The notes beneath the pieces were generated by a model. That model was not told where the DNA came from and made no database searches. It saw nothing but the letters and a program-made list of their open reading frames with translations. Made by a program: the position numbers and the translations under genes. A stretch of 64,000 nucleotides of DNA from Fistulifera solaris (taxonomy: Eukaryota), in the NCBI GenBank assembly GCA_030295235.1, contig AP026142.1:620001-684000 (forward strand). The letters run 5' to 3'. Position 1 is the stretch's first letter, and every line of letters starts with the position of its first letter. Of this stretch, positions 12,772 to 61,600 are shown in pieces.

Positions 12772-13212
12772 GACTAACAATGATTATTTCAGATCGTTTA
12801 TCAATCCAATCCTTTTGCGCTTCGTTGTTCTACTATTGATTTTCCAAGAAGATGCTGTCAAACAAGGTGTGTCGTCAGTGTGTCAGCCTTCTTTGTTGTG
12901 CGATTCCGCGAGAACGAGAAAATGCGGAAGCATGACAAACGTCAGTAACCTTGTCCTTAGCGGTTTTGGTCGTTGCTAACTATAGCATGAGGAGAGTCAG
13001 TAGTCTTTTGTACTGGAAAATAAAAGGTCGACCCATGTCGAAAAAAGCGAAAAAGGCAAAATCTAGCCGCAAGAGCTAGCCGAGTTTCTATTATGACAAT
13101 TGTTGGCTGACGGCTGGTGGCCAGTCTTGACTAATCTTACCTTGTGCCACGGAGTTTTCCATTGGTAATTATCTTCTGTTCTTTGGGCTTTGGGCCTCTT
13201 CCGATCGAGAGA

Positions 13213-13240
13213 CTCATGGCTCATGGCTCATGGCTCATGG
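13213..13240. repeat. (CTCATGG)x4 heptamer repeat
   Basis: Read directly from the sequence. Confidence 0.9.
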
Positions 13241-14147
13241 TCTATGTAATCGCGAACAAGAGAAAAAGGCAACACAATTTCCCTTATTTAATTGTCTACC
13301 TTATACTCCGGACTCCGGACTCCGGAGTCCGGAGTAGTTGAGAGTTGATAGTGATACCTGTACTCTGTACTCTCAAGTCTCAAGGGGCGAAAATTAGAGA
13401 AATAGAAAATAGTAGATAGGGAGTGTAGAGAGTAGAGAGACTATCTTCTCTCTTCTCTCCAGGCTCCAGGCTCTGGGCTTTACATTGGACTTCGACTACC
13501 TGGTATCAACTTCAACTCCACATCAAAGATCTAGAGACTATGACCCCGTAAGCCGTAAGGCTTCCGGACTTCATGTCACCGCTCGCTGCTCGCCCGATTT
13601 GTTCTTGCTTGCATGCCTTGTTCAAGCTTGCGGCAGATGGCGGCAGCCGGCAAGATCAGGCCGATGATGGATCCTCGATTCTTGATTGGGCAGCGCTAGC
13701 AGCTGTCGACCGTGCTCCGTGGAAAGTTCAACCTTCCACTATGTCTTTGTCGAGTATAGAGAGTGTGGAGTGTGAAGTTCTGCGTTCTGCAATCTGCCAG
13801 CATGGATTTACCTTGCTTATGGTTTCCGATGTGTGATCTATTTTCCCTGTTGTCTCTTTTCCCTCATTCGCTGTCGGAGTTCCAAGTTCGCTTTTTCTCC
13901 TAATCCACAACCTCACTTTAATCGATACTCAAAAAGAATTTAGTCTCAAGGACGGTTGGGATGGTACATTCAAAGTAAAAATAATGTCCTCAACGGCATG
14001 GACATGGTAGGAAAATCTCAAGACTTCGGTCATCTGAAAATGCTAGATTCGCCCCCCCCCCCAAATGAAATGAACCACCCAGCCACCCATCATTTGACGA
14101 CAAAAACTTCTCATAAAACTGTTTTTTTTTTCTCGATAACTTCATTT

Positions 14148-18178: not shown

Positions 18179-18338
18179 TGCAAACATTAAGAACTATTTG
18201 GTATATTGAGCTCTTAGTTCCAACAAGTGAATGACCAAATGATACGTAGTACTCAAAGTACGTGGTATCTTCCTTTTGAGCGGCAGTCAAAATGTCGTTG
18301 TCATCGTCATCATCCGAGCGACAATGGGCCTCGATGAT

Positions 18339-18360
18339 TCATGACTGAAACGCAGTCGTG
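18339..18360 (-). promoter_or_regulatory. bipartite intergenic element, dyad half only
   Basis: Minus strand reads CACGACTG-CGTT-TCAGTCATGA; function unknown. Confidence 0.6.
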
Positions 18361-18536
18361 GTGAAAGTTCGTAAGCAAGAATAAAAAACGCTAGGAGTTA
18401 CATTGGAATCAATCTAGGCGTGCAATAAAATTTCTGCTAAACGTGATTTCTTTGTGTTAGCGGCATATGTTCAGCTTATCAAATTAGCCAAATTTACGAA
18501 AATAAGGTAGAAGGGTGGCTCGAAAAAAATCATGAT

Positions 18537-18589
18537 TCGTGACTGATATGCAATCGTGGTTAAAAGTCGCCATCACTTTGGATCTATAG
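18537..18589 (-). promoter_or_regulatory. bipartite 53-bp intergenic element, full copy
   Basis: Minus strand reads CTATA-GATCC-AAAGTGAT-N13-CACGATTG-CATA-TCAGTCACGA; function unknown. Confidence 0.65.
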
Positions 18590-18737
18590 TAAATCGAAAG
18601 AATAGAATCATCATCCGCGAGGATCTTCGAGGCCAATGGAGAGAATCTGAAGAAGCTAATTGTATAAAGTTCACCGTACATTGCTTGTTGAAAAATTAGC
18701 AATGTAGGAATAAATGTTAGTAGTCTAATGAAGAGCG

Positions 18738-23327: not shown

Positions 23328-23430
23328 AAGACACCACACGCCCAGATTTTCTGGGAATGTCAAAACACCACTCACCCAGATTTTCTGGGAACGTGAAGAC
23401 ACCACACTCCCAGATTTTCTGGGGACGTAC
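23328..23430 (-). repeat. three copies of the 34-bp minisatellite, inverted relative to 36551-36950
   Basis: CCCAGATTTTCTGGG at 23341, 23375 and 23409 (period 34). Confidence 0.9.
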
Positions 23431-23689: not shown

Positions 23690-25548
23690 ATGAACATAAG
23701 GGCGACTATTACATTGCACCGGCAGTTGACAAGCCGTTTCTTCTCGACCGAACGACAACGTCGTCGTCGTCTTCCGAATGATGGCAAAGTGTTGCAACAT
23801 TTTCTTTCCGACGGCCGTACTCCATCCGCAACTACTACAGCTTCATTGTTACCTCCTTACCGCGGGACGTTTCATATTAAAACGTACGGATGTCAAATGA
23901 ATGTCAATGATACCGATATTGTACGGAGTGTCTTGTTCCAGGCGGGATGGCAGGAAACCTTGCAAGAACACGACGCCACTGTTTTATTGACCAATACGTG
24001 TGCGATTCGGGAACATGCGGAAACCAAAGTATGGGATCGCCTCAAACAGTTGCGAGCATTGCAACGCAAATCTTCTTACAATAGACACGCCATTGTCGGG
24101 GTTCTCGGTTGCATGGCGGAACGACTACAACAGGATTTATTACAAGACAATTTGGCCGATTTAGTAGTCGGGCCCGATGCGTATCGTGATTTGCCTCGTT
24201 TGTTGAATACACTACTTGATGAAGAAGAAGACCAAGCATTTAATGTACAACTCAGTTTGGAAGAAACGTATGCCGATATTCAACCCGTGCGACGATCGAA
24301 AGAGGATGTCAGTGCCTTTGTTTCCATCCAACGGGGATGTGCGAATCGATGTAGTTTCTGTATTGTACCCTTCACCAGAGGACACGAACGCAGTCGGCCG
24401 ATGCAGAGTATCTTGGATGAGATACAACAATTGCATTTCGAAGAGAACGTCAAGGAAGTCACGTTGTTGGGACAAAATGTCAATTCCTATCATGATACTA
24501 GTGAAACAGCGCGACTCGCGCGACCTTATCAGGATTATCGCATGTCGAATGAAGGCTTCCATTCTCGGATTCGGCGACAGGATGCCGGATACTTTTTTGC
24601 CGATTTGTTGGAAGCCGTCAGTGACATTTCTCCCGAATTACGGGTACGCTTCACATCACCGCATCCCAAAGATTATCCCACTACATTGTTGACACTCATG
24701 GCCGAACGGCCCAATATATGTCAACATTTGCACATGCCGGCGCAGTCGGGATCGACCACTATGCTGCAGCGCATGAAACGCGGTTATACCCGAGAGGCCT
24801 ACTTGCAATTGATGAATGATGTCCACAGCATTCTTCCCGATGTGGCCATTTCGTCCGATTTTATTGCCGGATTCTGCGGAGAAACCGAAGAAGAACACGC
24901 GGATACGCTCTCCTTGATGGAACACGTTCGCTACGATCAGGCGTACATGTTTGCGTACAGCATGCGTGAAAAGACGCACGCGCATCGGACGATGCACGAC
25001 AATGTACCGGAGGATGTTAAACAACGGCGTCTACGTGAAATTATTGACGTCTTTCATCGCACTGTACAGGCAAAGAATGAAGAACGAGAGGTTGGTCGGC
25101 TTCGACTCGTTTTGGTGGAAGGCGAATCGAAGCGGAGTCAACCAGGGAATTTACGTTGGCATGGACGGACAGATCAAAATAAGCGGTTGGTGTTTGCGGT
25201 GGCGGAGAATCGACAATGCTGGACCGATGATGATTTGTTTGGGCAAAAGGATTGTTAATGGATGCAATCCCGGTACCGACTGGCCACTTGTTACCCGGTG
25301 ACTATGCCGTTGTGGAAGTGACTGAGGCGAAAGGTCACACTTTACGAGGTAAGCTGTTGTGGAAAACCTCGCTTGCTCGATTCCAGGCATCGGGGCTGTC
25401 TGGAATCGATATGGAAAAGTCAGGAGCACGCAGCTTCCGTTACGCGTCAACTGAGTCTGCCAACGGAACCTTCCGCTACTTTGGTGCACTGCTAAAGCAA
25501 AGCTATTTTAGTTTAACTAAAGAAAGCCACACAATTCAGGAATCATGA
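23690..25548 (+). CDS. CDK5RAP1: tRNA 2-methylthiotransferase (MiaB/CDK5RAP1), probably mitochondrial
   Basis: TYGCQMNVND, NTCAIRE, radical SAM CxxxCxxC (GCANRCSFC), FTSPHP, C-terminal TRAM region after a frameshift near 25250; Arg-rich N-terminus. Confidence 0.9.
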
Positions 25549-25690
25549 TCTTTTGAACCAGGGTATCTTTGAAGATCCATTCGTTCTGCTAGGTTGGTAA
25601 GCCCTCATTGCGTTCAATAAACAAGTGCACTTTACTTTGTTTGGAAGGATGCGCCGGAAAACCTTACGAAATTGTCCTTTTCTGTATTCC

Positions 25691-25743
25691 CTATATGCCC
25701 AAAGTGTTGTCTGTTTTCCGACACGACTGCATTTCAGTCATGA
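25691..25743 (+). promoter_or_regulatory. bipartite 53-bp intergenic element, full copy
   Basis: CTATA-TGCCC-AAAGTGTT-N13-CACGACTG-CATT-TCAGTCATGA. Confidence 0.65.
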
Positions 25744-26122
25744 ATCTCCATCGTTCCGAGTCAGCCTGTCATTGAAGTTCGATTTGTTCTGCTAGATTGG
25801 TAAGCCGTAAGCCATCATTGCGTTAAGCCAAATGCGTTTAGCTTTGGCAGCATTGACAATACGTGCCTCTTGATTTTCCGGGTCGGATAAACTCTTGTGA
25901 ATTGTGAAGTGATGTTTTCCGTAATTATGATCACGACTGGATTTCGGTGACGAGTCATGAATGACAGATCCGCCACGTGACAAATGAATGAACGACGTGA
26001 TGATGTTTTGATGTTGCGGAAGCATAATCTCTGTACTACCAGTACTCCGTTCTATTTTCAAAACACAAACCAAATCAAAACAGAATAACACAAATCGAGA
26101 ACTCTCGTTTTTGCGTAGCATC

Positions 26123-26995
26123 ATGGTAGCTGCACTACCCGTCCTTTCATGGATTGGCGCGGCGGTGATAGGCACAGCACTCTTTGACAAGTTCCTGAAA
26201 CCCAAAGTGCCCTTTTACAAGTTACAAATCGACCGTTTGCCGCGTTTGCGCTACATGGATGGGCAATGGAAGACGCAACTACCGACGCGAGTCACACTAT
26301 TCAATGAAAATTATGTATCCATCGATATTTATGCAGTTTCGTTTGATTTGTTTTATGCGGATTGGTGGGATGGAAGTTTACATCACCTCGCACGTGTCGA
26401 AGATCGCCATCAACAAATTACACCAAGGGAAGATTTACTTCATTGTACATCTACTTCAATCAATTGTACTTCATCTGCAATAATAAAACAACCTCCCGTT
26501 TGGCAAATACAGCCGCGGTCGGACTTTGACTTTCAAGACGACATGTATGTCGTCTTGTCGGCTTCTCTTTATGAACTCCTGACATCGTACCTGTTCACCA
26601 TGACATCCCAATTATGGAGAGGCAGTGGACAGCTTGTATTGCCATCCACAGGTGTGGCGCATTTGCAAGTCGGAAAGATTCCCGCGACCGTCGCTCTCCT
26701 TTGTGACAATGTCGTAAATACCTGGGCCATGGCGGTCGAAGCCTTTGAGTGCCAGTTTCAAGACATCCAGTTGGCGTGGGCCGACTTGGACGAGACAGCG
26801 GAAAAGACCATGCAGAAAGCATTGAATTGGCCTTTGTTTCCAGAAACGGGAGGATTCTTTTTGAAGGAATGGACAGTCACGGCCGATGATCAATTGGATG
26901 CATTTCGGATCATCACGCTCGAAGATCCACAAGTGGAGAAGGAAACGTGCCATAATAAACAATCCATGGATATATTATTTAACAAAAGGCAATGA
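26123..26995 (+). CDS. hypothetical protein with N-terminal hydrophobic anchor (possibly LEA_2-like)
   Basis: Open 290-aa frame with an N-terminal hydrophobic helix; the pattern VTLFNENYVSIDIY resembles LEA_2 only weakly. Confidence 0.6.
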   Translation: MVAALPVLSWIGAAVIGTALFDKFLKPKVPFYKLQIDRLPRLRYMDGQWKTQLPTRVTLFNENYVSIDIYAVSFDLFYADWWDGSLHHLARVEDRHQQITPREDLLHCTSTSINCTSSAIIKQPPVWQIQPRSDFDFQDDMYVVLSASLYELLTSYLFTMTSQLWRGSGQLVLPSTGVAHLQVGKIPATVALLCDNVVNTWAMAVEAFECQFQDIQLAWADLDETAEKTMQKALNWPLFPETGGFFLKEWTVTADDQLDAFRIITLEDPQVEKETCHNKQSMDILFNKRQ

Positions 26996-35032: not shown

Positions 35033-35486
35033 ATGAACTCTTTGACTCGTGCCGCAACCACCACTCTTCCTCGGTATGTTCGTTGTATTTTGTAAGAGAC
35101 GCCGACGACTTGTCGTGATTTTGAATTCTTCGCTGCTGTTGCGGGGCATCACGAACGATCGCTTGTGCTCTCATGTATTCGTTGATGGCTCGAAAGAACA
35201 AATGACCCATCACACGAAAATTTTTTATTTATACTCCATGACTAACTCATTGCCTTTTCTTTTTCAATGATACAGGGTCCGCAGTGCCGTGCGCATGCAG
35301 AGCACAATGCCCCAAGCCGAGTCGTTCCAAAAGACGTGGTTGAGTGACCCCTCGACGTACCCCATTATGGTGATTCTCGGTGGAGCTGTTATGGGATGCA
35401 CGGCCTTTGCCACCAACAAGTTTGCGACTGATGGTAATGTACGTGTCTCCAGCAAGGCCAAGGGCAAAGTCATTCGCACCTGGTAA
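35033..35486 (+). CDS. B12D/NDUFA4-like small mitochondrial protein, paralog 2
   Basis: Exons 35033-35073 and 35276-35486; WLSDPSTYPIM-TM-GNVRVSSKAKGKVIRTW. Confidence 0.75.
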
Positions 35487-36550
35487 AGAAATACAATGCT
35501 TTTGGGGAAGTAGTGACTCCGTGGCTTTTAGATGAAATCGCTATAGAGAGCACTCTTTCTTCATTCACCATAGTTTTTGTGTTTGTTTCTCTTTCTCGTT
35601 TTTGATCGGCTGTTGTGACGACTTGTTAGCTACCGCGCGCATGGAATAGATCAAAATCCGCTAGCAATATCATGACGATTTGCAAAAGTAAATGGTGATC
35701 GAGGTCAGCCGTATCAATCATTACTATGAACTAGACTAGAGCATATCGTATTGCAGCAACTCGTCTCCGTAAACACAAAACCTCAAAAGGCGTTACCAGA
35801 TCCTGTGTCGTACTCTCACATCTTCCAAAAACTGTCGTATCAGGCATAACATTGTAGAATGTTTTTATTCGTCAAACGTTTACGCTGTATTTCATATTTC
35901 TTTACGGATCAAACGGAAGAATCATCAGCAATAGAGCGTCTCTGAAGCAATGATCCGCTACAAAATGTTTCAAGAAAAGGTAAACAATCGACCCAACCGC
36001 ACGCAGCTACGTGGATCGAACAATACTGTCAGAGAGAAAAGCACTAGATCAATGAACGACTGAAATGCAGTATTGGCAGTGTTCCGCCTACACCCTGGAG
36101 GTATAGTAGTTAATACGAAAGAGAACGATTTTCCAATTTTTTCGACGTAAATGAACAAGGCGTGCATCATAATGTCTTTCGGGATATCTGTATTTTGATT
36201 GAAGCACTGCTAGTAAACAGTGTTTACAGGACAGACGGAAATGAGTGAGCATCGATTCGCATGTTAGACTGACACTCAGTCGTGGAAACACACCGCTCAC
36301 ACCCTGCGGGTAGTAACTTTGTTAAGATATACCAACTTTTCCAGCTAATTGCATGTTGCTTCTAGCATACAAGTATATTGTTAGTAATTTATGTTTGCAG
36401 AACTGACGGAACGTTTCCGTCTCTATGACCCCCGTCTCAATCGCCCATGACTCATGGCTGAAATCCAGTCCCGATAATCCGAAAAGTTTTACTTTCGCTG
36501 TGACAAGAGACAAGAGGGTGTGGGGTAAAATTTTGAGAATCCATAGACTT

Positions 36551-36950
36551 CTCATAAAAATATGGGAGTGTGGCGTTTTCACGTACCCAGAAAATCTGGG
36601 AGTGTGGTGTTTTCACGTACCCAGAAAATCTGGGAGTGTGGTGTTTTCACGTACCCAGAAAATTTGGGAGTGTGGTGTTTTCACGTACCCAGAAAATCTG
36701 GGAGTGTGGTGTTTTCACGTACCCAGAAAATTTGGGAGTGTGGTGTTTTCGCGTACCCAGAAAATCTGGGAGTGTGGTGTTTTCACGTACCCAGAAAATC
36801 TGGGAGTGTGGTGTTTTCACGTACCCAGAAAATCTGGGGGTGTGGTGTTTTCACGTACCCAGAAAATCTGGGAGTGTAGAGTTTTCACGTACCCAGAAAA
36901 TCTGGGAGTGTGGTGTTTTCACGTACCCAGAAAATCTGGGAGTGGGGTGC
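36551..36950 (+). repeat. 34-bp minisatellite, 11 near-identical units plus 1 degenerate
   Basis: Unit CCCAGAAAATCTGGGAGTGTGGTGTTTTCACGTA recurs every 34 bp from 36586 to 36926. Confidence 0.97.
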
Positions 36951-37417: not shown

Positions 37418-37505
37418 CCCAGAAAATCTGGGGGTGTGGTGTTTTCAAGTCCCCAGAAAATCTGTGTGTGTGATATTTTCGACTTTCCAGAAAATCTTGG
37501 GGATG
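37418..37505 (+). repeat. three degenerate copies of the 34-bp unit
   Basis: CCAGAAAATCT cores at roughly 34-bp spacing. Confidence 0.85.
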
Positions 37506-48916: not shown

Positions 48917-50997
48917 TCAATCGCGACTCGAATCCAATCCTTTACGAGATCGTGGACGTGATTCCTTTTTCCGTGAAGTTCTTCGGTCGCGAGAGTCTAC
49001 GGAATAGCTCCCTGACGAAGAGGAGGAGCTATAATGTCGCCTCTTTTTTCTTCGAGAATACGAAGACCTGCTGGACGACGATGAAGAGCTATGGGAGCTT
49101 CTACTGGAATGGGAACTGCTTGATGACCCCAATGATGACGAGGAGGAGGACGACGACGAGGAAGAAGATGACGAGGAGGAGCTGCTGGAACTTGACGACG
49201 ACGATGTTGAGGTTGATGAGTCATCCTCGTTCTTTGCTTGTTGCAGTTGGCTTGCTTGTGCCATAATGATCTTCGGCGCATTCTTTAGAAAATCACGCAA
49301 ATCATCGGTAAGTGGGCCTAGCCCAATCGAAGTAAAGAAATTGATTGCGTAACGTGTATTTCGAACATTGTCTTTCGAAAACATCCCCGAATACCAGCTT
49401 TGTTGTTCAGGATCTTGCGTTTCGAATCGTTGCTTCAGTTTTGCGATACCCAACGCTTCGGCGATTTCTTGAATTAGAATTTTGATAAAAATTCGACTTG
49501 ATGACGTTGTTTCCTCTTCGTTAATGCGAATCGTCGACAAGACACTCCACGGCATGGCATCTGAGTGAAGTAAATGCGCAAAGACCTTGGCGACATTTCG
49601 CAACTTATTTGTTTCCAGTCGATGAATCGTGTTATATTGGGAAATGAATGCTGCCATAAATGCGTCTCTCCAGCGATCATCCATAAGACAAAACCTGGCG
49701 GAGATCAGACCGTAATAACGTAGAAATGTGCGTTCCTGAGAGCAACACTCAATCAACATGTTTACTAACTCCTCCTCACGACCAGCAGGTATATTAATTC
49801 TCGCAAGCTTGTGAGCGCATTCCTCAAAAGTAGCACTCGACATGATTGTCAAGTAAATCGTACGGCGCAAATGAACGAGATCAGCTTCTGAGAGGTCGTG
49901 CACGACCAATTGATTTGCCGTAGGTGCTACTTCTTCTCTCCCTTGGTCATCAATTCCATCTTGGGATTCATCATCGTTACTTTCGTCGTTTTCACTATCA
50001 TCCGTTTCGCTCTCGCCATCATCGTCACTGTTAAGTCCTAATATCTCCGCTTTAATTTTGCTCCACACTTTCTCGTTCTCTAAGTATTGCGAATCCAAGT
50101 CAAAGATATCAAGATGATCATCGCGCTTGATATCAGGATCATCCAAATCAATTTCGAAGGTGATTTGATCACTTTCTTCAACGAGATCCAAGTCATCAGA
50201 AATAGGATTCTCAAGATCACGGAAACCATTCTTTCGCATGGCCAACAAGTGTTCCATTTTGACCTCAACGCGTTTGCTGAGACCGCCTTCGTGAAGAAGA
50301 GCTCTCAACCTCTCCAAGACCGCTCGCACGCCCGCCGGAGACACTTCCAGTAGCGTGCGGCCTGTCGTTGTCAATAACTGAATCGCCACTTCGACAGAAT
50401 CATCGGTCGGATCTCCATCCAGTAAGACGGATAGAATCTGCAACAAAACCAGTTCGTGTACTACCGACTGATGGAATAAATGACCGAGAAAAACAGCAAC
50501 TGCAGAACAATTTGCCTTTTCTCGTCTTCGGAAATGTCTCCTGAACGCAAGGATCGTGCGATTCACCACCAACTCCCCCACTTCCGGCAACTTGCTGTTG
50601 ATGACAGCCAAAAGGAAGCATATACGGGAGCGTACACAGGAGCACTCACAGCTGCTAAAAGCAACGACTTTGCAAGAACCCCACGGAGACGAATCAAGTT
50701 GACCTTCTCCATAATCTCATGAATGAGAGGTTTCAACGTTGTGGCATTCAATCGATTGATGGTTCCGTGAATCACACGCGTTTGCTCTTCCCACGTACTC
50801 CTTTGAATGTGAAGACTGTCTGGCGCTTCCGCCGCATCTTTCAAGGCTTGCTGACGCTCCAGTTCCAGCTGACGGCGTTTTGCGGGTGGAATGTACACGC
50901 CATCTTCGGCTGCCGCCATCAAGCTGCGCTTGTTGCAGCCCATGTGTTCCTCGGGTCGCTGACTCTCGTTGGCCGTTTCTTTCGGGCTTCCGGCCAT
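48917..50997 (-). CDS. CWC22: pre-mRNA splicing factor CWC22
   Basis: GVYIPPAK, NLIRLRGVLAKS, PTDDSVEVAI, RRTIYLTIMSS, ECCSQERT, SSSRIFIKIL, RYAINFFTSIGLG; one frameshift near 50610. Confidence 0.93.
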
Positions 50998-51154
50998 TTC
51001 TTGAGGACGAGTGCTTTGCTTTTGACAAATGCTCTATATCTCTCGACGGTTTAGTTTGCCAGAGACAACAACGAAGGCGGAAAATCGAATCGCAGTGATG
51101 CTAACAACACAAAGGGGCAAAGGAGTGTGTCAAGCTGATGGTATACCAGACGGA

Positions 51155-51206
51155 CTATAGGTCGAAAGTGTTGTCCGTTCTTCTCCACGACTAGACTCAG
51201 TCATGA
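51155..51206 (+). promoter_or_regulatory. bipartite intergenic element, full copy
   Basis: CTATA-GGTCG-AAAGTGTT-N13-CACGACTA-GAC-TCAGTCATGA. Confidence 0.65.
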
Positions 51207-51727
51207 TTCACGAATCATGATTCACGAAGCGTGTACAACCCCTCTTGCTCATCGGAGGTGCACCGTCTTCCTGCGAAGGACTGAAAGGTTCGGATGTTGT
51301 TGTGTTCTTCATTGCTTATCCGTTTTAAGCTATTCTTGCACTTCAAGCGTGTACCAGCTTGTCTCGTAATCGAAATGGAGCAATGAAGAAACGGACGGAA
51401 CAGACCCGGCAAATGGTCAAGAAGTGTTTGCATGGCGATTATTGGCGGCGGACTTTTCCATTTCGAAATCTAAACGGAGAAGGCTGTGTTGAGCCTGTTT
51501 AAGTAGGCGCGCAAGGAAAGCCAGCCGTTATTATTATTATTAACTTTCAGCTGGCAATCTTCTTTTGTTGTCGAAACTCAATTGACTATTGACAGCTAAG
51601 CGACCTGGATCTAGCTTCTGCATTTGAAGAAAAAATGAGCAACAATTGATCCTAGGTAGGCAAGAGAGGATAACTTGTTAGATAATCAAGAACAACAGAT
51701 CAGACTCATGTACTATTTTTTGTTTAG

Positions 51728-52740
51728 TTAGTTAGGAGGGTAGACAGGTCGACTCGGTAGCTGGGGCGGCGACATAGCTTGGGGCGGACCCGGCGGCGGA
51801 GCAGTCAGCCCCTGAGGCCACGCGGTTTGGGGTGTCAACACCTGAGGAATGATAGTGGGGTAACGAGGATCGCTTCGTAATTGCCGTACGTCTGCAAAGT
51901 TGTCCACTACCACATCGCCTGGACCCTCATCGTCGCTGTATTCAAGGGGACGGCGACGACTTCGGTCAAGCCGTCTTCAACGAATTTGTTGTTGACAATA
52001 CGGATCGTTCCTCCTCCGGGCATTTCGCAAATGAAATGGTATGGTTGACTTCCACCACCACACTTTAGGTCAAACTCCTGTGGCGTGTTATTGGGCCCTT
52101 GCAGTACTTGTACTTTCAAATTGAAGGATTTTTTACCGACATAAAACGACCATATGACGAGCTGAACACTTTTCACACTGGCGTCAAATGACCACGTGCG
52201 AACAGCACCTCCCCCTTTCGGTTTGATATTACCTCCCTGCACCTTCGTTTTCACATTATTTTCCCACACCGCATCCGTATAGGCGGCAATGGCCTTGTTA
52301 CGCTCCTTACCGGCTGGCATGACACCCGCGTACATTGGGAACTCTGGATCGAATGTGCTCACTTTGACGACCTGCGGAGGGTACATTTTCTTGAACTTGA
52401 GTACAGCGCGGAAAGGGAATTTGATTCCATCTTCCGAGTCAATCACCATCGTGTGCGTCGTTCGCAAAGGGCCACACCAGAGTTCTACCTTTGCCTTGAG
52501 CGGACGGCCTTCGGTCGTAAAGTACAGTTGGCATCGCTCTACTCCGGGGGGCATTTGGAACGTTCGAACCGTGTTTCCACCGTCAAGGCGTTGCAGCGGC
52601 ATGTCAGGAACTAATTCAAAGGGTATGGCTTGCAAATTCGAAGCCGATGTTTTTGTCGGAGTCTGAATAAGGAAAGCGACAGCCTTCATCATATAGGAGG
52701 CAAACACACATATTCCAAAGACTTCACGGGTAAATTTCAT
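51728..52740 (-). CDS. signal-peptide protein with two internal repeats, unknown function
   Basis: Signal peptide ..AVA-F; repeats GGNTVRTF..GRPLKAKVELWCGP and GGAVRTW..KVQVLQGPNN; Pro-rich tail after a frameshift near 51920. Confidence 0.7.
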
Positions 52741-53265
52741 CTTTAGAGTTGATTGAATTTTGAAAAAAAGCCGTAGTTAATCTGCCGAAGGATCGGAATC
52801 CGATGTGCAGCAAACGAACTGTTTATGATGGATTTTAGTGATGGATTGGTGGATGGACTGATCCGTGATGATCGTCCGTGCGTACTTTTGTGAGCGTTGA
52901 AAATTGAAAACAAATCCGAAGTTTTCTCGGTTGGGATACTACAAATATAGATTTAAAGTGAGCGATTAATTAACGGGTACGACATCAACATCCAATGCGC
53001 CAAATGACGTATGTTTTTCTCAGAAAAACGATCCATCACTGTAAAGTTGATAAGTGGTGGAGTGTACTGTGACTTGTACTGTACTGAACACGGAAGGGAG
53101 CATGTGAACCTTTGAAGCGAACGATCTAGCTAAACTAGATAGTCTCTACCTTTTTAATTGTCACGCGTAACAAACTAGAACCATGAGATAGGCTAGAAGG
53201 AACAGGTCTTTAGTTAAGAAATAAAGCAGCATCATTCATCGAAACTATTGCTAATCGTTATCGAT

Positions 53266-55599
53266 CTATCCATAATGAGCAACCATCGTTTCGATTTGGT
53301 CCAAAAGCTTGTGGCATATCTCTCCGCACTGATCAGGAAAATTGCTGGAGGCTGTCTGAGCAAGCTCTGAAACGTTTGATGCTTGCATTGCCTTGAGGTT
53401 TTCGTGAATAGCAAGTTCGTAAAGAACTTCACACGCGTGTTGCTGAACCTCCACTTGGTGACTGTATAAAACCATTGCCAATACAATAGCGTCCAGTCCT
53501 TCTTCCTCTACGATTCGGATTTTGCAAGACTGATCGATGGCGAGGTTCGTCAGTAAAGCACAGCCCATCTCTTGAACAACGGCAGAGTTATCAACGTGCG
53601 CTTGCATGGCATTGATGATGGCAGCAATTCCGCCTACGTCAACAATAAGTCGCGAATTCCTTTCTTGAAGTGCCAACGTAAAGAGAGCGCGGCAGCACCA
53701 TTCCAAAACACCAATAGCGTCCGCATGGACCCACATGGCTCTCACGAGAACATCCACACCCCCGCAGTCTCCAATCAACGCACAGCTACCGGGGATCCCA
53801 GCGAGGTTCGACAACGTCCAAGCCCCTACTTCTTGTACACCAACGGCATCCCTGTGAATTTGAAGAGCCGCAATTGTCGCATCAACACCCCCAATGTTCG
53901 TAATCTCAACCTTATTTTCGTCACAGTTGGCGGAAAGGTTTCGAAGACCTCTTAAAGCCTTTTCTTGCAACTCGGAACTCGATGAATGCATCACCATTGC
54001 GATGGTCAATGCATTGCCGCCTCCATCGTCCATGATTTTGCTTTTCATCGATGAAGGATGCGACGAAAGATTTGCAATGACAAGACATCCTTTCATCAAA
54101 ATGAGTATATCGTCGCTGTGCTTGGTCATCGAATTCACCACTTTCTTGACAACACCGCTTTGCACCATCACTTCAACATTCAACTCTAAAGCTGCAAGAT
54201 TGGCCAACGCTGCTAGGGCTTGCTCTTGAAGGTCAGCATTTTCGACGAATGATTCCAAATTGCGAAGCAGGATGTCGACAGCTCCCGCTTCAACAAAAGC
54301 GTGTTGGTTTTGTGGTATCCCGGTCGCATTCCATATCGCCCCGCAACCGTAGACTTGTAAATCGGCAGACGACGCGAACGCATTCATTGCTTCAACAATT
54401 ACTCCTATTCCGCCAACATTCGATAACGTATTGCTCTCCTCTTCTGAAAAATGTATTTGCGAAAGTTTCAGCAGTCCCGCGAATATCACGTTTGTATTAC
54501 CTTCATAATGTCTCATAGTGTTTAAGATTCCGACAAAGTCGGATCCCATGTTTTCAATCTGATCGACACCCGCATTATCTGATTCTTGATTTGAGATGAC
54601 CTCATGAATGGCGACAGGTACGTCTTCGTCGTAATGATGGCTATCGGAATGTTGCTCTAGATCGGTCTCAACGTGTACATCCAGCATCGACTGAGCATAT
54701 GTGAACGAAGTGGCGTCATCCGATATTCCAGATCCGATGGATCTCGAACTTCCAACTCTGAGACTACGATTGCTTCGACTGTATCGCCCTACGGAGCCAT
54801 CCGATGCTGCAGGAGAATGAGGAACAAACGCCCCGCCTCGATTGAGTACTCGTTGCGCTTGGCGCTCCATAAAGAGCGCTTCCTCGGTCGCAATTTGATC
54901 CAGCTGCTCCTGACTCAGGTCCGAAGGCATCCACATGTCGATCTCATCATGCGTATGGCCGGGATGGATGTTATGGATTTGATTTCGGAGATCGTTGGGT
55001 AAATGATGCGGCGGCCGAGATTCGGAGGCAGTACCGGCCCCGATTCCAACCGGTGTCGAAAACGCCCGGGGTACTCCTCGGACCGGGCCTCGCGTACTGA
55101 ATGAACCATCGGATTGCTCATCTCCATTCATACGAGCCGATGAACCAGAATGCGAAGATGCACTCTGCGAACTCGGAGATATCATAGGTCCGGACATTGT
55201 ATGGCGGATCACGCGATTTCCGGGTGATTGTGTACTTCGAAAACTACTCGGTGCGGGAGGAGCCCGAGATGTCAACCCGAACGAGCGCTCGGAACGTCCT
55301 AAATTTAGCTGCGATAAATTAAATCGTTCCAAGTCTTCATCTGTTGCTCTTCGCGAAACCGCCGGAATATCTTCACCGTCGCTCGCGCTATCTTTGGATG
55401 ACAAAGGGTGACAATTCAGGCAACGTCCCTTGAGTACTAATCCGTGTTCGGTAATAGGTATTGATTTGAATAGTTTTTTCTGAAAACATTTCCTTCCGCA
55501 AGTAATACATTCTCCTCGTTTACGTCGTTGCTCTTCTAACTGATCGCGACTCATGACAGAGCCTGTGGCGCTATCGAAAGCATTCCCAAAGCCGTCCAT
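53266..55599 (-). CDS. armadillo-repeat protein with N-terminal Cys4 motif
   Basis: Intact 777-aa ORF; CITC..CLNC; about 8 ARM repeats (GCGAIWN, ALAALANLA, GAWTLSNLA, GCALLTNLA). Confidence 0.85.
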   Translation of the reverse strand: MDGFGNAFDSATGSVMSRDQLEEQRRKRGECITCGRKCFQKKLFKSIPITEHGLVLKGRCLNCHPLSSKDSASDGEDIPAVSRRATDEDLERFNLSQLNLGRSERSFGLTSRAPPAPSSFRSTQSPGNRVIRHTMSGPMISPSSQSASSHSGSSARMNGDEQSDGSFSTRGPVRGVPRAFSTPVGIGAGTASESRPPHHLPNDLRNQIHNIHPGHTHDEIDMWMPSDLSQEQLDQIATEEALFMERQAQRVLNRGGAFVPHSPAASDGSVGRYSRSNRSLRVGSSRSIGSGISDDATSFTYAQSMLDVHVETDLEQHSDSHHYDEDVPVAIHEVISNQESDNAGVDQIENMGSDFVGILNTMRHYEGNTNVIFAGLLKLSQIHFSEEESNTLSNVGGIGVIVEAMNAFASSADLQVYGCGAIWNATGIPQNQHAFVEAGAVDILLRNLESFVENADLQEQALAALANLAALELNVEVMVQSGVVKKVVNSMTKHSDDILILMKGCLVIANLSSHPSSMKSKIMDDGGGNALTIAMVMHSSSSELQEKALRGLRNLSANCDENKVEITNIGGVDATIAALQIHRDAVGVQEVGAWTLSNLAGIPGSCALIGDCGGVDVLVRAMWVHADAIGVLEWCCRALFTLALQERNSRLIVDVGGIAAIINAMQAHVDNSAVVQEMGCALLTNLAIDQSCKIRIVEEEGLDAIVLAMVLYSHQVEVQQHACEVLYELAIHENLKAMQASNVSELAQTASSNFPDQCGEICHKLLDQIETMVAHYG

Positions 55600-56241
55600 T
55601 CTTGTCGATATACAATGCCTGCGCTAATACACTTTCCCTCGCAAATACATAAACCGCTAATATAGTTTGTTGCTTCTTTTGCCTTTTATATATCCTTTTG
55701 TTATGGTTGCTTGGAATCAAATCAAGTGTTTGCTCGAAGAATAATCTCGTTGATAAGCCGTCCCTTGCTTGTGGCTATTCCCATGGTCACAGCTGTATCT
55801 CGGAATGCGTTATCATGTTGAGCTTCGTTTCTTCCACTCCGCAGTGTAAATTGACCTCCTCGATGGTCTTCCTACTGATTGTGCTATACATTTGGTGGGC
55901 AAACAGGACCAAAAGCGACGCCGTCGCACAGTTCGTCATGACGGTCACGCGTCCTACCGCGCGCGCGTCATACACATTTGTAGTCTCCTGTTGGATCATT
56001 CTCGTTTTTAGATTAAAGAGTGAATATCGTTACGACATGATTTTATCGGAATGTCTTTCACTCTGACTGAAATTTATGGGAGAAACTTGGGACTGCGGTC
56101 CAGACGAATGACTGGAGCGAAACACCAACAACAACAACTTTTTGTGTTTCACCAACATCACATAGGACGTCGATCCATACTCTCCGTCTCATTTTATGCT
56201 TTCAAGCGAATAAAAAAATTACTATTTCATTGTTGAATCTA

Positions 56242-57920
56242 TTAGGGACACTTCCGGTTGACGATGGCAGATCCCCATTCTTCGTACTCTTGTTTGGAGA
56301 TCCACATTTCGTGAAAGTTTCCCAAACTACCTAATATACTTCCGCCTAGCCAACTTAAAATGGCCCGCTCGGACAACGAAGGTGTCAGCAAGCGCACCCT
56401 CCAGCCCGGTGTGTGAGCATGAATCAAAGATTCAATCTGATCGCGCAAATAATCCGGGACAGCCTGCTCGGTAGGTCCCAAACAGGAGCCTCCTCCACCT
56501 AACACAACGTTTCCTAACAGCGCGGCTTGTTGTTCCCGGTCACATCGGTACGCGGCGTCGCACACCATCGAAGCCACTGGGAAGGCCGTCAACTGATCGT
56601 CCAAAAGCGTTTGTAAGTGTTTAGTACAAGCACGATTCATTTGTCGATTAGAAAAGAGTCGACTTGGCTGCTGCTTTTGTTTCTGTGTTGCTTGCTGTTT
56701 GTTGCGGCGCTTTGACAATCCAACAGCAGCTTCCTCGGAAAATTTGTCATCCTTCTCTGACTTTTCTTCGTCGTCGTCTTCATTGTCGTCAAATTGCGAC
56801 TTCTCAATGATTTTCTTTAAATTCGACCGGCAATCTTCTAAATGCTGCTCCCGCAATTCGACAGTCGCTGGCGAGCTACCCAACACCAAATCAGCCGCCG
56901 CGAAACGATCCACGGAGGGAACATCCAGCACGGTTCCGTCAGGCAGTGTGTAGGATTTGCTGGGCGCATGGAACGCGGTATCCGTAATGTTGACCGCAGC
57001 TCCCGCTCCAAACTCCCGGCATTCTCTAGCCAATTCCATCCGTGCCGCGAAATGGATCGATGGACGCCGCTGTGGACGCGGCAGAGTCTGCCCTTCCGGA
57101 TCCAGATACTGTTGTACAGGTCGCACCTGATAGAGAGGTCGAATGCCATCGTGCGCGGCCGGCTGTTTCGTTTTGTACAATGCATCCAATCGTTCTAATA
57201 TTAATTGATCCATCGCACGAACACCTGTGGGAGACCGACGGATCCCCTTGGTCTCCGCGAATCCTTCAAAGACTGGTGTCACGGTGGTTCCGGAGTGTCC
57301 GATATCCACCACCGTCGCCGTCGTGCGACCACATCCGTAACACATCAAGACAGCGTCTTTCGCGATGAAAGCGGCGGGGACGTTCATCTCTTCCATTAAG
57401 CATTCAAGCGTCTGCTGTCGAATAGCGGGTGTATTGTAGGATCGCTCAATCATCAAGAAAGGATGTTCTTCGATTTTGGCTTGTTGCAATGCCGTGCTGT
57501 ACCCATGGTGCAAGAAATCGCGCAGCAAATCCAAACCATCCGAGCCTTGCGTTGAATCAGGGTCGTACATGAGTCCGGATGTAGGATTGATAGGATTGCA
57601 TGTTTCCCAATTTCCGTCATCAAAGGTTTTGCGTTGAATCGGATGAGTATAAAAATCATGATGAACTCCTTGAATTCTCCGTAACTTGTCTTCTTGACGC
57701 AACACAGCAACATTCTATAATGTAAATTAGGGTATCATAAGATGATGAGTATTCCAACGCGCTTTATAGAGAAGGAAGGAGTGCGAGAAAACAGAATGAT
57801 ACGCACCGACGGAAAGTAACTTCGCGGAGCGTCATCGCCAGCCCAGCCAATCTTGGTCGCATAATGACCAATTTCGGCAACTACAGCTCCTATGTCATCA
57901 CCTCCTGCAAAAGCTGCCAT
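56242..57920 (-). CDS. ARP4: actin-related protein 4 (ARP4/BAF53-like)
   Basis: GGDDIGAVVAEIG..GWAGDDAPR; intron 57715-57806; TATVVDIG; C-terminal WLGGSILGSLGNFHEMWISKQEYEEWG..KCP. Confidence 0.85.
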
Positions 57921-58101
57921 TGTCTGTAATTGTTGATGATTCTAATTGATTTGCGCTGAAAGAAGGGACGAATTTTTGAATTTGTTTTGCCAAACTGCGA
58001 GGCGGTTTTTGTTATCATGAAAGTTTATTGCGTTTTGCTGCGCGTCGCTCGACGGTCGACGCAAGGGCCTACAGAAACCAGAGCGACAAAAAACGCCTAC
58101 A

Positions 58102-58153
58102 CTATAAACCGTAGTGTAAGCGACGTTTCTCCACGACTGGATCTCAGTCATGA
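58102..58153 (+). promoter_or_regulatory. bipartite intergenic element, near-full copy
   Basis: CTATA-AACC-GTAGTGTA-N13-CACGACTG-GATC-TCAGTCATGA. Confidence 0.6.
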
Positions 58154-58334
58154 CCTGAAACGAGTTTGTCTGGACTCGAATAACAATTCTCAGAAATATT
58201 CTTGTCCTTGATGAATGTGAGGTGTCTGGAAATCATATCTTTATAATTATAACTATCGAGTATCCACAAACACTTTTATGGCGTTGCTTAAACATTTTGC
58301 GACGCTAGTTCCGGACCCTTCGCTGGAGTATTGA

Positions 58335-58387
58335 CTATAGGCTCAAAGTGTTAATTCTAGGGCTACACGACTGGAACTCAGTCATGA
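58335..58387 (+). promoter_or_regulatory. bipartite 53-bp intergenic element, full copy
   Basis: CTATA-GGCTC-AAAGTGTT-N13-CACGACTG-GAAC-TCAGTCATGA. Confidence 0.65.
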
Positions 58388-58645
58388 GCTACAACGGTTT
58401 ATTGCTGCGTAAAATTTTTAGGTTGTAATGATAAAGGACTTCTTGATCAAACAATCGTCATTGTTACAATATATGAAGGTGCCATTCTACTCTCTAGCTG
58501 TTGAATAGTAAATATGAGCAGATTGATTCGTCTCGCACGATTAAAGCGGTTTTCTTTTGTGAAAACGGCAAGTTGAAAACGTTTGCGAAAACCGCACCTT
58601 GAAACCGTTTCCAACAAGATAAAACGGCACCTTCACGAATCAAAA

Positions 58646-61600
58646 ATGTCGTCTCCTAAACTCAAAATGAGCTCACAAAATTTCCCATCGAGCAATCGAA
58701 ATCATCACAACACACAACAACTCTCGATTCATCATGAAGTTCCTTTCTTTGCTCATCACGATGGCATCCGCCGCTCCGATTCCTCTCGATCGCTTTCAAG
58801 CGATGCTGCAGACCGAAGTCCAGCACGAGTTCGCTGTGAATCATCCTCACAGTCGTCAGCTACAGGACGACCTGTGGGATGCCGCCTGCAACATGAGTTG
58901 AACGTTGCGGCAGAACGCGAAGCCCTCGAGCATACTCCGTCACCCTTTTTGGTGTGCGATTTCACCCTCGGCAAGACCGGTGACTTGTGTCGCGCCGATG
59001 TTGGTGCTGAATTGAAGACAGACGATCTATTGCCAGTCATTAATAAGTTCGATCAAACGTGCTTTATTGTGGAAGCGCTCCCGTCGGTCATTGCTGGACC
59101 TACCAACTTGGCCGCCATTCCTCTCACGGCGGAAATGAAAATGGGGCAGAATTTGGTCGATCAAATCGAGCAACGACAAATTCAGCGCATGGATGCTACA
59201 TTCTGCCTCGGACAGGTGCAAACCGATGAAGAAGCGCATGATTTAGCGGCTCGTGTGCTCTCGGAACGCGAACGTCACTTGTCGGCCTTTGTGGAAGGTC
59301 GTGTGTACCGTTCGCAAGAACGAGAAGGGTTTTGGCGTCGTCGACTGCAAGAAGATATGGACGAGGCTATCTGTGAAAGCGTTTATGCCGAGATGGAGCT
59401 AGATATCAGCACGAGCAGTCTGTCAATCGAGTTTACGGAGGAACACACGCGATATTCGGAATGCCTTCAAGCTCTTGTGGTGCACCTTGCTACACGGCCG
59501 GAAATTTGCTTTGTGGGTGGTTATCAACGAATCCAATTACTCAATGATGTATCCAGCGGCATTGTGCAAGATGGTGAAAACAAGAACAAATTGTTTCATC
59601 AGCGGGGTTTGAACGGAACTGGTCAAGTGGTCGCGATGAGTGACACTGGTAAGTCATGATTCCTTTGCTATTTTAAAATGAACATCGACTGAGTCGCTCA
59701 CACAAAGTATGCGTACTTCTTCAGGTGTTGATGTCGATAATTGTTATTTCTATGACCCCCAAACATCAGTCATGAAGACAAGAAGCATTCGTTTCGATCC
59801 ATCCGCCCGCAAAATCATACAGTACTATACCTTTGGTGATGGCTACGAGGGACCCAGTGGTCATGGAACGCACGTAGCCGGAACAATCGTAGGCCATCGT
59901 GGAGATGGAAGAGACGGTCGTGGAGATGGGATCGCTAAGGGAGCGAAACTCGCTGTTTTTGACATGCAAGGACCAGAAGGCATGAGAAGACCGCACGTGC
60001 TCGAAATGTTCGAACCAGGCTACGTTGCCGGAGCTCGCATTCATTCTGCTAGCTGGGGAATTCCCAACGAAAATCGTTACACTGCTTTTGACCGTGACAT
60101 TGATAAATATCTGTACGACCACCCTGATTTCCTGTTCGTGGTGGCTGCTGGTAATTCAGGAAGCGGTAACATCCGCAATACCGTTGCTTCTCCGGCCACA
60201 ACGAAGAATGGCATTGCTGTCGGTGCAACGGACAATTCAATCGGCGGTATACTCGCCGAATTCTCGAGCCGGGGGCCTACGTCAGATGGTCGCATGAAGC
60301 CAGATGTGGTTGCACCAGGGTTGATGATTACGTCGGCGAGAGCCGATCCTTCTCTCCGTGGAGAATGTGATGAGTCAAATGGGCTTGTTCAAATGTCCGG
60401 AACTTCGATGGCTACACCTCTTGTAGCAGGCGTGGCTGCGGTTATTCGTCAATACTTTGCTGAAGGGTGGTACGAAAATGGATCAAAAAATCAGATGATC
60501 GGCTACCAGCCCCGTGCGAGTTTAGTCAAGGCTATCCTTATCAATAGTGGAGAAAATTTGCGTGGAGTTAGCGGATCATACCCGACGGAACCCTATGACA
60601 TGCAGCAAGGCTTTGGTCGCGTCAACATGAAGTCGTCATTGCCACATGGTGGTGACGGAAGCGACATGAAAGCCATTTTCGTCAATGCTCAGCGTATCTC
60701 CAGTGGTGATGAAATTACCTACAACGTGAAAATAAACGATGCTGCCGTCTGCAGTGGTCCACTCAGTGCAACTTTGGTATGGACAGATCCTGCCGGTGCT
60801 CCTTTTTGCAACATGGGGTGCGTACTGAACGACCTCGACTTGTTCCTAACGCGAAAAGGCAGGGAAGGAAAGATCTTTCCCAATAATCTCAATCAAGCTG
60901 ATTCCACCAACAACGCGGAACGTGTACGAATTGAGAATCCACTGCCCGGTGACACTTACTCTGTCCATGTGAAAGGAACCGAGCTTCTGGCGTCGCAAGA
61001 TTACTCGTTAGTTATTTCAGGTTGTCTGACCGATGCCACGATAAAGGATGATGTAACTAATGACGAGGAATCGGTCGCAGAGCATGATGCTGACTGTGAA
61101 GATGGTTTTGGTCTTATCAGCATCAATGATAACATGATGAAGAACTGCACCTGGCTGTCTGCAAACATTGACGAATATGGGTTCTTGTGCTCATACACTG
61201 ATATTGTGTCTGAGTGCCCTTCAACTCTGCAATCGATGCTCTTATAAACAATTGGAGATCGGACGTGGCTTCATAACAGCAAATCTTGGCTCAGGTACTG
61301 CCCCACTCCGTTGGTATGGTATCACATTTGATTTGAAAACCCGAGCTTCGCTGACTTTTCAAGGATTGAGCTTGTATCTAAGTTCCAAAGAAGCATTCCG
61401 GGTTCAAGTTTTTATAAGCAACGGTGACCGCAATTCGGTTGAGAAGAATCCTCTTGCTGCATGGATTCCCGTGTGCGATGCCGTCGTCACAGGCGCCGGG
61501 ACAGCAAAAGAAATTAAAATTGAGGGATCAGAACACTGCCGTCCCTTTCCTATGAACGAAAACTCGTTTTTCACGATTCAAGTTGAGGTCGAGGGCACCA

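Follow-up and report, generated by a model that had tools for sequence, protein, structure and literature searches.

Gene setting of the module

The window analysed here is a 64-kb stretch of diatom nuclear DNA, which encodes a diatom pyrenoid-shell protein (Pfam PF25192) amid ordinary eukaryotic genes. Stop-to-stop open reading frames (ORFs) of at least 150 aa cover 63.7% of the window and leave a remainder of 36.3%, and a fragment of a Copia-type RT attests to mobile DNA there as well. Very little is known of how promoters, boundaries or replication origins are marked in the nuclear genomes of diatoms. Between the genes of this window, a module of about 55 bases, with four short conserved boxes set at constant distances, is repeated in small tandem arrays. 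Five loci carry it (A with two copies, B with two, C with three, D with one and E with two), and every count and statistic on the module refers to this single 64-kb window and these five loci.

Array A lies between the convergent stops of a cyclase/phosphodiesterase (PDE-domain) gene, at about 18178, and of a MutS gene, at 18738, with 161 nt to the PDE-domain stop and 149 nt to the MutS stop. Array B follows a radical-SAM gene and precedes a gene at 26123-26995 with its ATG at 26123, whose homologues are found at 45-93% identity, the orthologues in relatives being 73-93% identical; copy B2 is located 170 nt upstream of that ATG. Array C is placed 560 nt beyond a B12D-like small gene, facing the 3' end of that gene, and about 1.24 kb from the next ATG, that of an RMI1-like gene, across a 34-bp satellite that adjoins the array at copy C1. 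At locus D, 158 nt separate the single copy D1 from the ATG of the presumed first exon of a minus-strand MIF4G/MA3 gene. Finally, array E lies between a minus-strand actin-related gene, whose true first exon starts at 57920 (minus strand) with its ATG 182 nt from E1, and plus-strand ORFs leading into a subtilase, where ATGs at 58514 and 58646 come 127 nt and 259 nt after E2.

The copies, together with one repeated segment of locus B and the tail of D1, are the following (E values from the profile search with nhmmer):

A1, 18529..18592, minus strand: near-complete copy with ACTATAG, AAAGTGAT, a T-rich spacer, the dyad CACGATTG-N4-TCAGTCACGA, ATCATGA and a T7 run (E 1.8e-13)
A2, 18329..18377, minus strand: dyad with a ATCATCGA tail, without the left boxes, 198 bp from A1 (E 1.6e-10)
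B1, 25690..25755, plus strand: near-complete copy (E 1.2e-13)
B2, 25906..25965, plus strand: dyad with 2 mismatches and a GTCATGA heptad, GAAGTG box displaced by 5 nt, without CTATA, 210 bp from B1 (E 6.1e-9)
Locus B, array unit 1, 25559..25614, plus strand: non-module segment, repeated at 25762-25824 with 82-94% identity
C1, 36440..36501, minus strand: degenerate dyad CGGGACTG-N4-TCAGCCATGA with GTCATGG, AAAGTA box at -22, without CTATA, adjoining the 34-bp satellite (E 2.3e-7)
C2, 36251..36314, minus strand: CACGACTG-N4-TCAGTCT, with AGGGTGT replacing AAAGTGT at -21 and CTACC at -29, 189 bp from C1 (E 2.4e-9)
C3, 36049..36109, minus strand: decayed full-length copy with ACTATA, AGGGTGT and CAATACTG-N4-TCAGTCG, CTATA at -31, about 209 bp from C2 (E 9.8e-10)
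D1, 51152..51216, plus strand: near-complete single copy, inner spacer 1 nt shorter (E 7.5e-12)
D1 tail, 51201-51228: 14-bp unit present twice, (TCATGATTCACGAA)x2
E1, 58100..58160, plus strand: near-complete copy with TAGTGTAA as second box and a CTATA-to-dyad offset of 30 nt (E 4.2e-12)
E2, 58331..58399, plus strand: near-complete copy, 234 bp from E1 (E 1.7e-11)

A discrete family of ten copies

The recurrence of the module is well above what the composition of the window would produce. Its right box, CACGACTG-N4-TCAGTCAYGA, has 7 matches in the window with up to 3 mismatches, where 0.08 are expected, and none of 100 shuffles reached that number; D1 escapes this count because its inner spacer is 1 nt shorter. 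The left box, CTATA-N5-AAAGTGWT, occurs 4 times exactly and 7 times with up to 2 mismatches, compared with 2.35 expected, a number reached in one of 100 shuffles. A profile of the whole module recovered ten copies at the five loci, with E values from 1.2e-13 to 2.3e-7, and the next hit, at E 0.41, is the palindrome read backwards. The scan with a weight matrix was also bimodal (copies at 22.9 or above, background at 13.5 or below, mean null maximum 13.6). Both profile and matrix were trained on the copies themselves, and the separation that they give shows a discrete family and is no independent test of it. All nine copies named in a sequence-only reading of this DNA were recovered at their positions, and their total rises to ten with C3 (36049-36109, minus strand), which was found by both the weight-matrix scan and nhmmer.

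Moreover, 6 of the 8 CACGACTG words and 5 of the 7 CAGTCATGA words of the window fall inside copies, and the half-sites showed no enrichment as free-standing motifs outside the copies in the window. Altogether, this clustering of words in copies and the bimodal profile scan define the unit as a composite module. In this regard, the exact pattern occurs 5 times in the 64-kb window, compared with 11 matches in prokaryotic genomes amounting to 596 billion bases and none in a search of viral contigs. The 11 prokaryotic single matches are attributed to chance and all fall within the right-box part of the profile that was searched. Chance also accounts for right-box matches at six metagenome loci, where that part of the profile was again the one searched: the left boxes are present in none of the six, and five of them have a G+C content of 0.60-0.71. 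Candidate extra copies at 13109 and 14876 were rejected on inspection of their sequences, and a possible decayed copy upstream of B1 (25530-25555) was left uncounted, since its sole support is a stretch of 19 nt that resembles the A1 tail.

Anatomy and geometry of the module

In motif orientation, the module comprises, in this order, ACTATAG, a gap of 4-5 nt, AAAGTGWT, a T-rich spacer of 13 nt, CACGACTG, a gap of 4 nt and TCAGTCAYGA. Its right part forms the imperfect palindrome CAYGACTG-N5-CAGTCRTG, with 8-bp arms and a 5-nt gap whose centre varies, and the most constant letters are those of the inner dyad, GAYTG-N4-TCAG. In several copies (A1, A2, B2, C1 and D1) the dyad is followed by TCAYGA-like heptads in a 7-bp register. 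Folding of the dyad gave a single 5-bp hairpin, with no compensatory changes among the five predicted pairs.

The distances between boxes are nearly constant. As had been noted from the sequence, CTATA and CACGA are separated by 31 nt in four copies (A1, B1, D1 and E2) and by 30 nt in E1. Measured to the dyad, the CTATA offset is 31 nt in five of the six copies bearing CTATA (those four and C3, for which the value holds once the anchor is shifted by 2 nt) and 30 nt in E1. The AAAGTG box lies 21 nt from the dyad in A1, B1, D1 and E2, 20 nt in E1, 22 nt in C1 and 26 nt in B2, and the AGGGTGT variant of C2 and C3 is also placed at 21 nt. The second arm of the dyad is found at +12 in nine of the ten copies. 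The box starts therefore fall at about 0, 10, 31 and 43 bp, equivalent to about 0, 1, 3 and 4 turns of B-DNA, which suggests that all the boxes would face one side of the helix.

Conservation follows the boxes. When the five near-complete copies are aligned, 25 of the 54 columns do not vary, 17 of them in runs of at least five (permutation p=0.00055), which fits the earlier inference of conserved boxes with length-constrained spacers. The accompanying statement that the spacer sequences largely differ has to be corrected for the second spacer, which is T-rich and partly alike in four of the five near-complete copies.

Tandem arrays and their origin

Copies within a locus are always on the same strand, with periods of 189-234 bp. 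The same-strand pairs proposed before were found with spacings of 198, 210, 189 and 234 bp, except that C3, at about 209 bp from C2, turns locus C into a triplet. In locus B, a further 45-56 bp of the units are homologous outside the module (82-94% identity, z=16), and units C2 and C3 share a weaker stretch outside it (z=4.8) in addition to their common AGGGTGT variant. Such homology of the DNA between copies within B and C indicates that the arrays arose by old tandem duplications, made locally, of a unit of about 200 bp. The remainder of the unit is no longer recognisable in A and E, yet the dyads there are 85-95% alike. That the module was kept while its duplicated surroundings decayed is the strongest argument for purifying selection acting on it.

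When all five loci were compared, no homology between loci was found outside the module. The absence of homologous flanks claimed earlier is thus upheld between loci and does not apply within B or to C2 and C3. The arrays are not a satellite, since units are alike in the module alone, plus part of their body in B and C, and Tandem Repeats Finder reported no array at the module loci except the 14-bp tail of D1. In locus E, a contig of run X1 represents a second haplotype that diverges from the window sequence past 58228, in the interval from E1 to E2; this divergence may be an insertion there, in which case the E1-E2 spacing may be unconstrained.

Position relative to genes and a neighbouring candidate transcript

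Nine of the ten copies are outside all ORFs of at least 150 aa, and the remaining copy, C1, is overlapped by a spurious ORF that the 34-bp satellite creates. For five independent loci to fall all in the non-ORF 36.3%, the calculated chance is about 0.006. The intergenic location in convergent, tandem and divergent contexts, as described from the sequence, is therefore borne out. With respect to the closest 5' end, the module points forward at B2 and E2, backward at E1 and both ways at D1.

A further candidate feature was detected next to D1:

51289..51702, plus strand: candidate unannotated transcript downstream of D1, from contigs of runs X2 and X3, presumed to be RNA

The X2/X3 contigs cover 51289-51462 and 51533-51699, and one of them ends at 51702 with 22 A residues that are not encoded by the genome. 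If these runs are RNA, as is presumed, this non-templated tail marks a polyadenylated plus-strand transcript, in which the longest ORFs are of 39-50 aa. Four runs of one study were compared, as contigs, with 50800-59800; those of runs X2-X4 have no cover at 51056-51288 (D1) or at 57723-58625 (E1 and E2), which has no bearing either way. Two aspects of these loci had been missed by the sequence-only reading, namely that the pairs are tandem duplications and that several copies lie 130-260 nt from gene 5' ends.

Possible roles of the module

The most probable role of the module is in the control of transcription, as a site bound by proteins. More specifically, the reading that we tentatively prefer is that of a selected, orientation-independent, multi-protein promoter or open-chromatin module of intergenic DNA. 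In such a model, a dimeric factor would recognize the imperfect palindrome CAYGACTG-N5-CAGTCRTG, with further subunits on the in-phase TCAYGA heptads of some copies, and one or two partners would occupy the boxes further upstream, AAAGTGWT at two helical turns and ACTATAG at three, so that all proteins would contact the same side of the DNA. The resulting complex would keep the region nucleosome-free, and RNA polymerase II would start nearby in either direction, as in a bidirectional promoter. Arrays would grow through tandem duplication of units of about 200 bp, of which the module alone would thereafter be retained. The earlier suggestion of a multi-protein DNA site fits the clustering of conserved columns in boxes, the constant offsets and the survival of the module in decayed duplicated DNA, and of its variants the Pol III option is not supported, as detailed below.

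A promoter role is suggested by the five gene or transcript starts that loci B, D and E have within 130-260 nt of copies, on either side of them. Moreover, both arms of the dyad read NCAGT, which fits the initiator consensus BBCA+1BW given in the part of PMC5287114 covered here. Other observations argue against a promoter: array A is located between two 3' ends with no known 5' end on either side, array C is far from any gene start, and the orientation of the module to the nearest 5' end is inconsistent. In addition, ACTATAG makes a poor TATA box when G/C-rich bases follow it. If the window is typical, its five loci would also imply thousands of copies genome-wide, a density that is more usual for dispersed repeats. 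We know of no factor with this specificity, and none was found in the literature searched.

Contexts such as those of arrays A and C would be explained if the module were an architectural multi-protein platform rather than a promoter, that is, a chromatin boundary or nucleosome organiser, a transcription roadblock or a replication-origin element. Such a platform would account for every context, including the convergent array A and an array C distant from 5' ends, and for a module orientation that is independent of the genes. Also in keeping with an architectural role are the constant distances of the boxes, probably along one DNA face, the array periods (189-234 bp), which would be close to one nucleosome repeat, and the frequency of one locus per ~7-15 kb, which suits a structural element better than a gene-specific regulator. 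The array periods, however, are not constant, the possible insertion after 58228 in the X1 haplotype may mean that spacing is unconstrained, and four of the five loci adjoin a gene 5' end; on balance, we judge an architectural role unlikely. Diatoms are not known to have an origin or insulator consensus with which to compare it, and none surfaced in the literature searched for one. In its more specific form, the module would be the platform of a general chromatin organiser of the diatom lineage (a boundary or nucleosome-depleting factor) or of the origin-recognition machinery, to which we also give a low probability. Were it true, the element would mark a large share of intergenic regions regardless of gene orientation, its tandem arrays would set nucleosome-scale spacing, and no sequence-specific architectural or origin element would have been defined in diatoms before it. 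The density of copies (ten in 64 kb) also invites comparison with a dispersed transposon-derived repeat, in which the module would be the conserved end or recombination site of a small non-autonomous or repeat-carrying element, either a rolling-circle 3' end with its hairpin, a core site of a tyrosine recombinase or the tail of a 5'-truncated retroposon, which would be conserved because the mobility machinery needs the module or would look conserved merely because it is young. In this line, the dyad is hairpin-capable, with 8-bp arms, a 5-nt gap and a variable centre, homology stops abruptly just outside ACTATAG, the left part is missing from A2 and B2, as it would be from 5'-truncated copies, and short tandem heptads trail the dyad in some copies, with the 14-bp unit of D1 present twice. 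Tandem arrays are common in some transposon families, and the Copia-type RT fragment shows mobile DNA in the window. Nevertheless, there is no between-locus homology outside the module, array copies are direct and not inverted, and divergence is concentrated in the spacers, unlike the neutral decay of repeat copies. The copies of locus B multiplied by local duplication and not by insertion, and no transposase, recombinase or Rep ORF was found nearby. A transposon end with target-site duplications, which the earlier reading had named as a finding that would speak against it, was looked for: no flanking direct repeat of at least 11 nt brackets any copy or array, and the bracketing inverted repeats, 15 nt at A and 12 nt at E, are locus-specific and of chance size. 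For these reasons a transposon origin is considered improbable, and its particular forms fare as follows. A TIR transposon or MITE is rejected in view of the direct repeats, the lack of consistent flanking repeats and the absence of a body common between loci. Helitron 3' ends carry a hairpin about 10-12 nt before a CTRR end, with a host T adjoining and family-wide internal homology; a T does follow the CTATAG end in four of the five near-complete copies, but the reverse-read hairpin is about 32 nt from that end and there is no homology on the internal side, which makes this identity improbable. For a retroposon (LINE/SINE) tail, which would show variable 5' truncation, a simple-repeat tail and a flanking target-site duplication, the missing left boxes of A2 and B2 and the heptad tails stand against the lack of direct repeats of at least 11 nt and the spacer-concentrated divergence. 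As for a tyrosine-recombinase site, which would have inverted arms about an overlap of 6-8 bp and a cognate recombinase, the 8-bp arms and 5-nt gap are present and the window contains no recombinase ORF.

Two further explanations receive still less weight. Highly improbable is that the module represents the promoter and conserved 5' end, or the upstream element plus TATA, of many tandem short non-coding RNA genes with fast-evolving bodies of about 130-180 nt, like snRNA, snoRNA or piRNA-type units. Each array unit, of 189-234 bp, could accommodate one small gene, a short putative polyadenylated transcript without a long ORF follows D1, and a fixed spacing between upstream element and TATA is a hallmark of snRNA-type promoters. 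Yet Rfam gave no hits at gathering scores in the whole window, and permissive searches at loci A, B and E returned C/D-box noise (E 0.45-4.8) and unrelated chance hits; the best C/D-box snoRNA candidate, snR87, scored 21.9 bits (E 0.45), below its gathering score of 37, and was discarded. ARAGORN found no tRNAs, the five predicted pairs show no covariation, and the folding, on both strands, of 14 regions located between copies or next to them gave z values from -2.28 to +1.69, with one of 28 below -2. T-runs after the copies are at inconsistent distances, the first T4+ being about 33 to 150 nt past the dyad, and the bodies have nothing in common between loci. A Pol III gene, of type 2 or 3, which would have internal A/B boxes or a tRNA-like fold, is consequently rejected, and the Pol III-type promoter of the earlier reading is not supported, there being no tRNA or Rfam genes, no consistent T-run terminator and no structured RNA adjoining. 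An snRNA-type promoter was set aside as well: the dyad-to-CTATA distance (31 or 30 nt) has the right geometry, but no small structured RNA gene (snRNA, 7SL, MRP and similar), expected some 25-30 nt past the TATA box, was found adjoining. The idea that the module has no function, being a chance similarity or a neutral leftover of recent duplications, can appeal to the single window and to the duplication of the within-locus pairs, and is hardly credible given the 7 right-box matches against 0.08 expected, the 5 exact patterns in 64 kb against 11 in 596 billion prokaryotic bases, the sharing of boxes but not of flanks between loci and the clustering of conserved columns. The probability left over is reserved for explanations other than those considered.

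If its properties hold genome-wide, the module could be used as bait for its binding proteins, could supply diatom engineering with a compact candidate promoter or insulator, and could flag transcription units missing from the annotation, among them the short putative polyadenylated RNA beside D1. If it derives from a transposon instead, it would define an unclassified family keeping just about 55 bp.

Comparison with known systems

Within Rfam and the literature covered, the module matches nothing described, and both searches agree with the earlier failure to recognise it. Publications on diatom motif words, core promoters, conserved non-coding sequences and cis-motifs, with subscription journals and supplements outside the scope, contained no such element. 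In the parts covered, PMC5485032 deals with syntenic conserved non-coding elements and not with a dispersed motif, and PMC11267843 contains none of the module words save one AP-1 site.

By analogy, the closest functional parallels of the module would seem to be snRNA-type promoters, or others of fixed geometry, and the bipartite sites bound by general regulatory factors of yeast. With the snRNA-type promoters of plants and animals it shares short boxes, length-constrained but sequence-free spacers and non-homologous flanks, and, when read in reverse, a dyad element at a fixed 31 bp from a TATA-like box. Unlike them, it has no recognisable small RNA adjoining and no terminator pattern, its density is far higher and its boxes are unrelated. 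A TATA-like box 31 bp upstream of the dyad, whose arms fit BBCA+1BW as given in the covered part of PMC5287114, also recalls TATA-plus-initiator core promoters, where transcription would start at the initiator about 30 nt from the TATA box, and bidirectional promoters, and both D1 and array E are found between divergently oriented transcription units. However, its ~20 specific conserved bases far exceed any initiator, and the module also occurs between convergent 3' ends (array A).

Other likenesses concern DNA-binding platforms and mobile elements. Yeast Abf1/Reb1-type sites and the long elements of yeast origins are multi-box and intergenic, have fixed spacers, and occur at promoters and 3' ends free of orientation; the module differs from them in lineage, in sequence and in forming tandem arrays with a unit of about 200 bp. 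What it has in common with Helitron 3' termini and tyrosine-recombinase cores is a short palindrome of variable centre near an abrupt end of homology, in many dispersed copies, whereas the module has no internal homology, no consistent terminal or target features and no Rep or recombinase gene nearby. Finally, a stramenopile bZIP protein binds TGACTCA, according to the covered portion of PMC11267843. The main dyad, CAYGACTG-N5-CAGTCRTG, is neither AP-1 nor CRE and tails are absent from four of the ten copies, but the tails of the others include AP-1-like palindromes: TGAGTCA in C1, TGAATCA in A2 and A1, and TGATTCA in D1.

Repeats adjoining the module copies

Copy C1 of the intergenic module (36440..36501, minus strand) is adjoined by an array of a 34-bp satellite with consensus AAAATCTGGGAGTGTGGTGTTTTCACGTACCCAG, which comprises 11.6 copies at 95% identity (36557-36949) and generates spurious long ORFs. 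Short arrays related to this satellite were found at two places:

23331-23428, short related array
37418-37502, short related array

Repeats were also observed on both sides of the pair of module copies that forms array A (18329..18592, minus strand):

18324-18338 / 18623-18637, 15-nt inverted repeat, 87% complementary
near 18606-18614 and 18308-18316, repeated word GGATGATGA

Since nothing comparable was found at the other module loci, these bracketing repeats are probably due to chance.

Haplotype difference and transcript

Contigs of one sequencing run (X1) revealed a second haplotype between the two module copies of locus E, E1 and E2 (positions 58196 and 58228), seen as an A>T difference at roughly half depth; past 58228 one contig diverges from the window, a departure that may represent an insertion. 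None of the haplotype differences listed for this run falls inside a module copy, their number being too small for a test.

A short transcript without annotation is covered by run contigs:

51289-51702, plus strand, unannotated transcript

A contig end at position 51702 carries 22 non-templated A, and the longest ORFs of the transcript reach 39-50 aa; it may represent an RNA that is non-coding or encodes a small peptide, transcribed divergently from the MIF4G/MA3 gene.

Gene models

57807-57920, minus strand, first exon of an actin-related gene, encoding MAAFAGGDD...FPS and matching positions 1-32 of Pfam Actin with E 1.7e-6
35271-35486, plus strand, small ORF with a match to PF06522 (B12D / complex I MLRQ subunit family) at E 4e-5, scoring above the curated cut-off

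An intron follows the actin-related exon, and the gene start therefore lies ~350 nt further upstream than the first ATG in its long ORF. The surroundings of the B12D-like ORF appear otherwise gene-free.

Mobile and repetitive DNA

1686-2855, plus strand, Copia-type reverse-transcriptase fragment (RVT_2, E 1.5e-28)
4844-5973, plus strand, DUF285 repeat ORF run, tandem periodicity 144-151 bp
13213-13240, microsatellite (CTCATGG)x4
13305-13333, microsatellite (ACTCCGG)x4

Both heptamer microsatellites, perfect or near-perfect, lie within one intergenic region.
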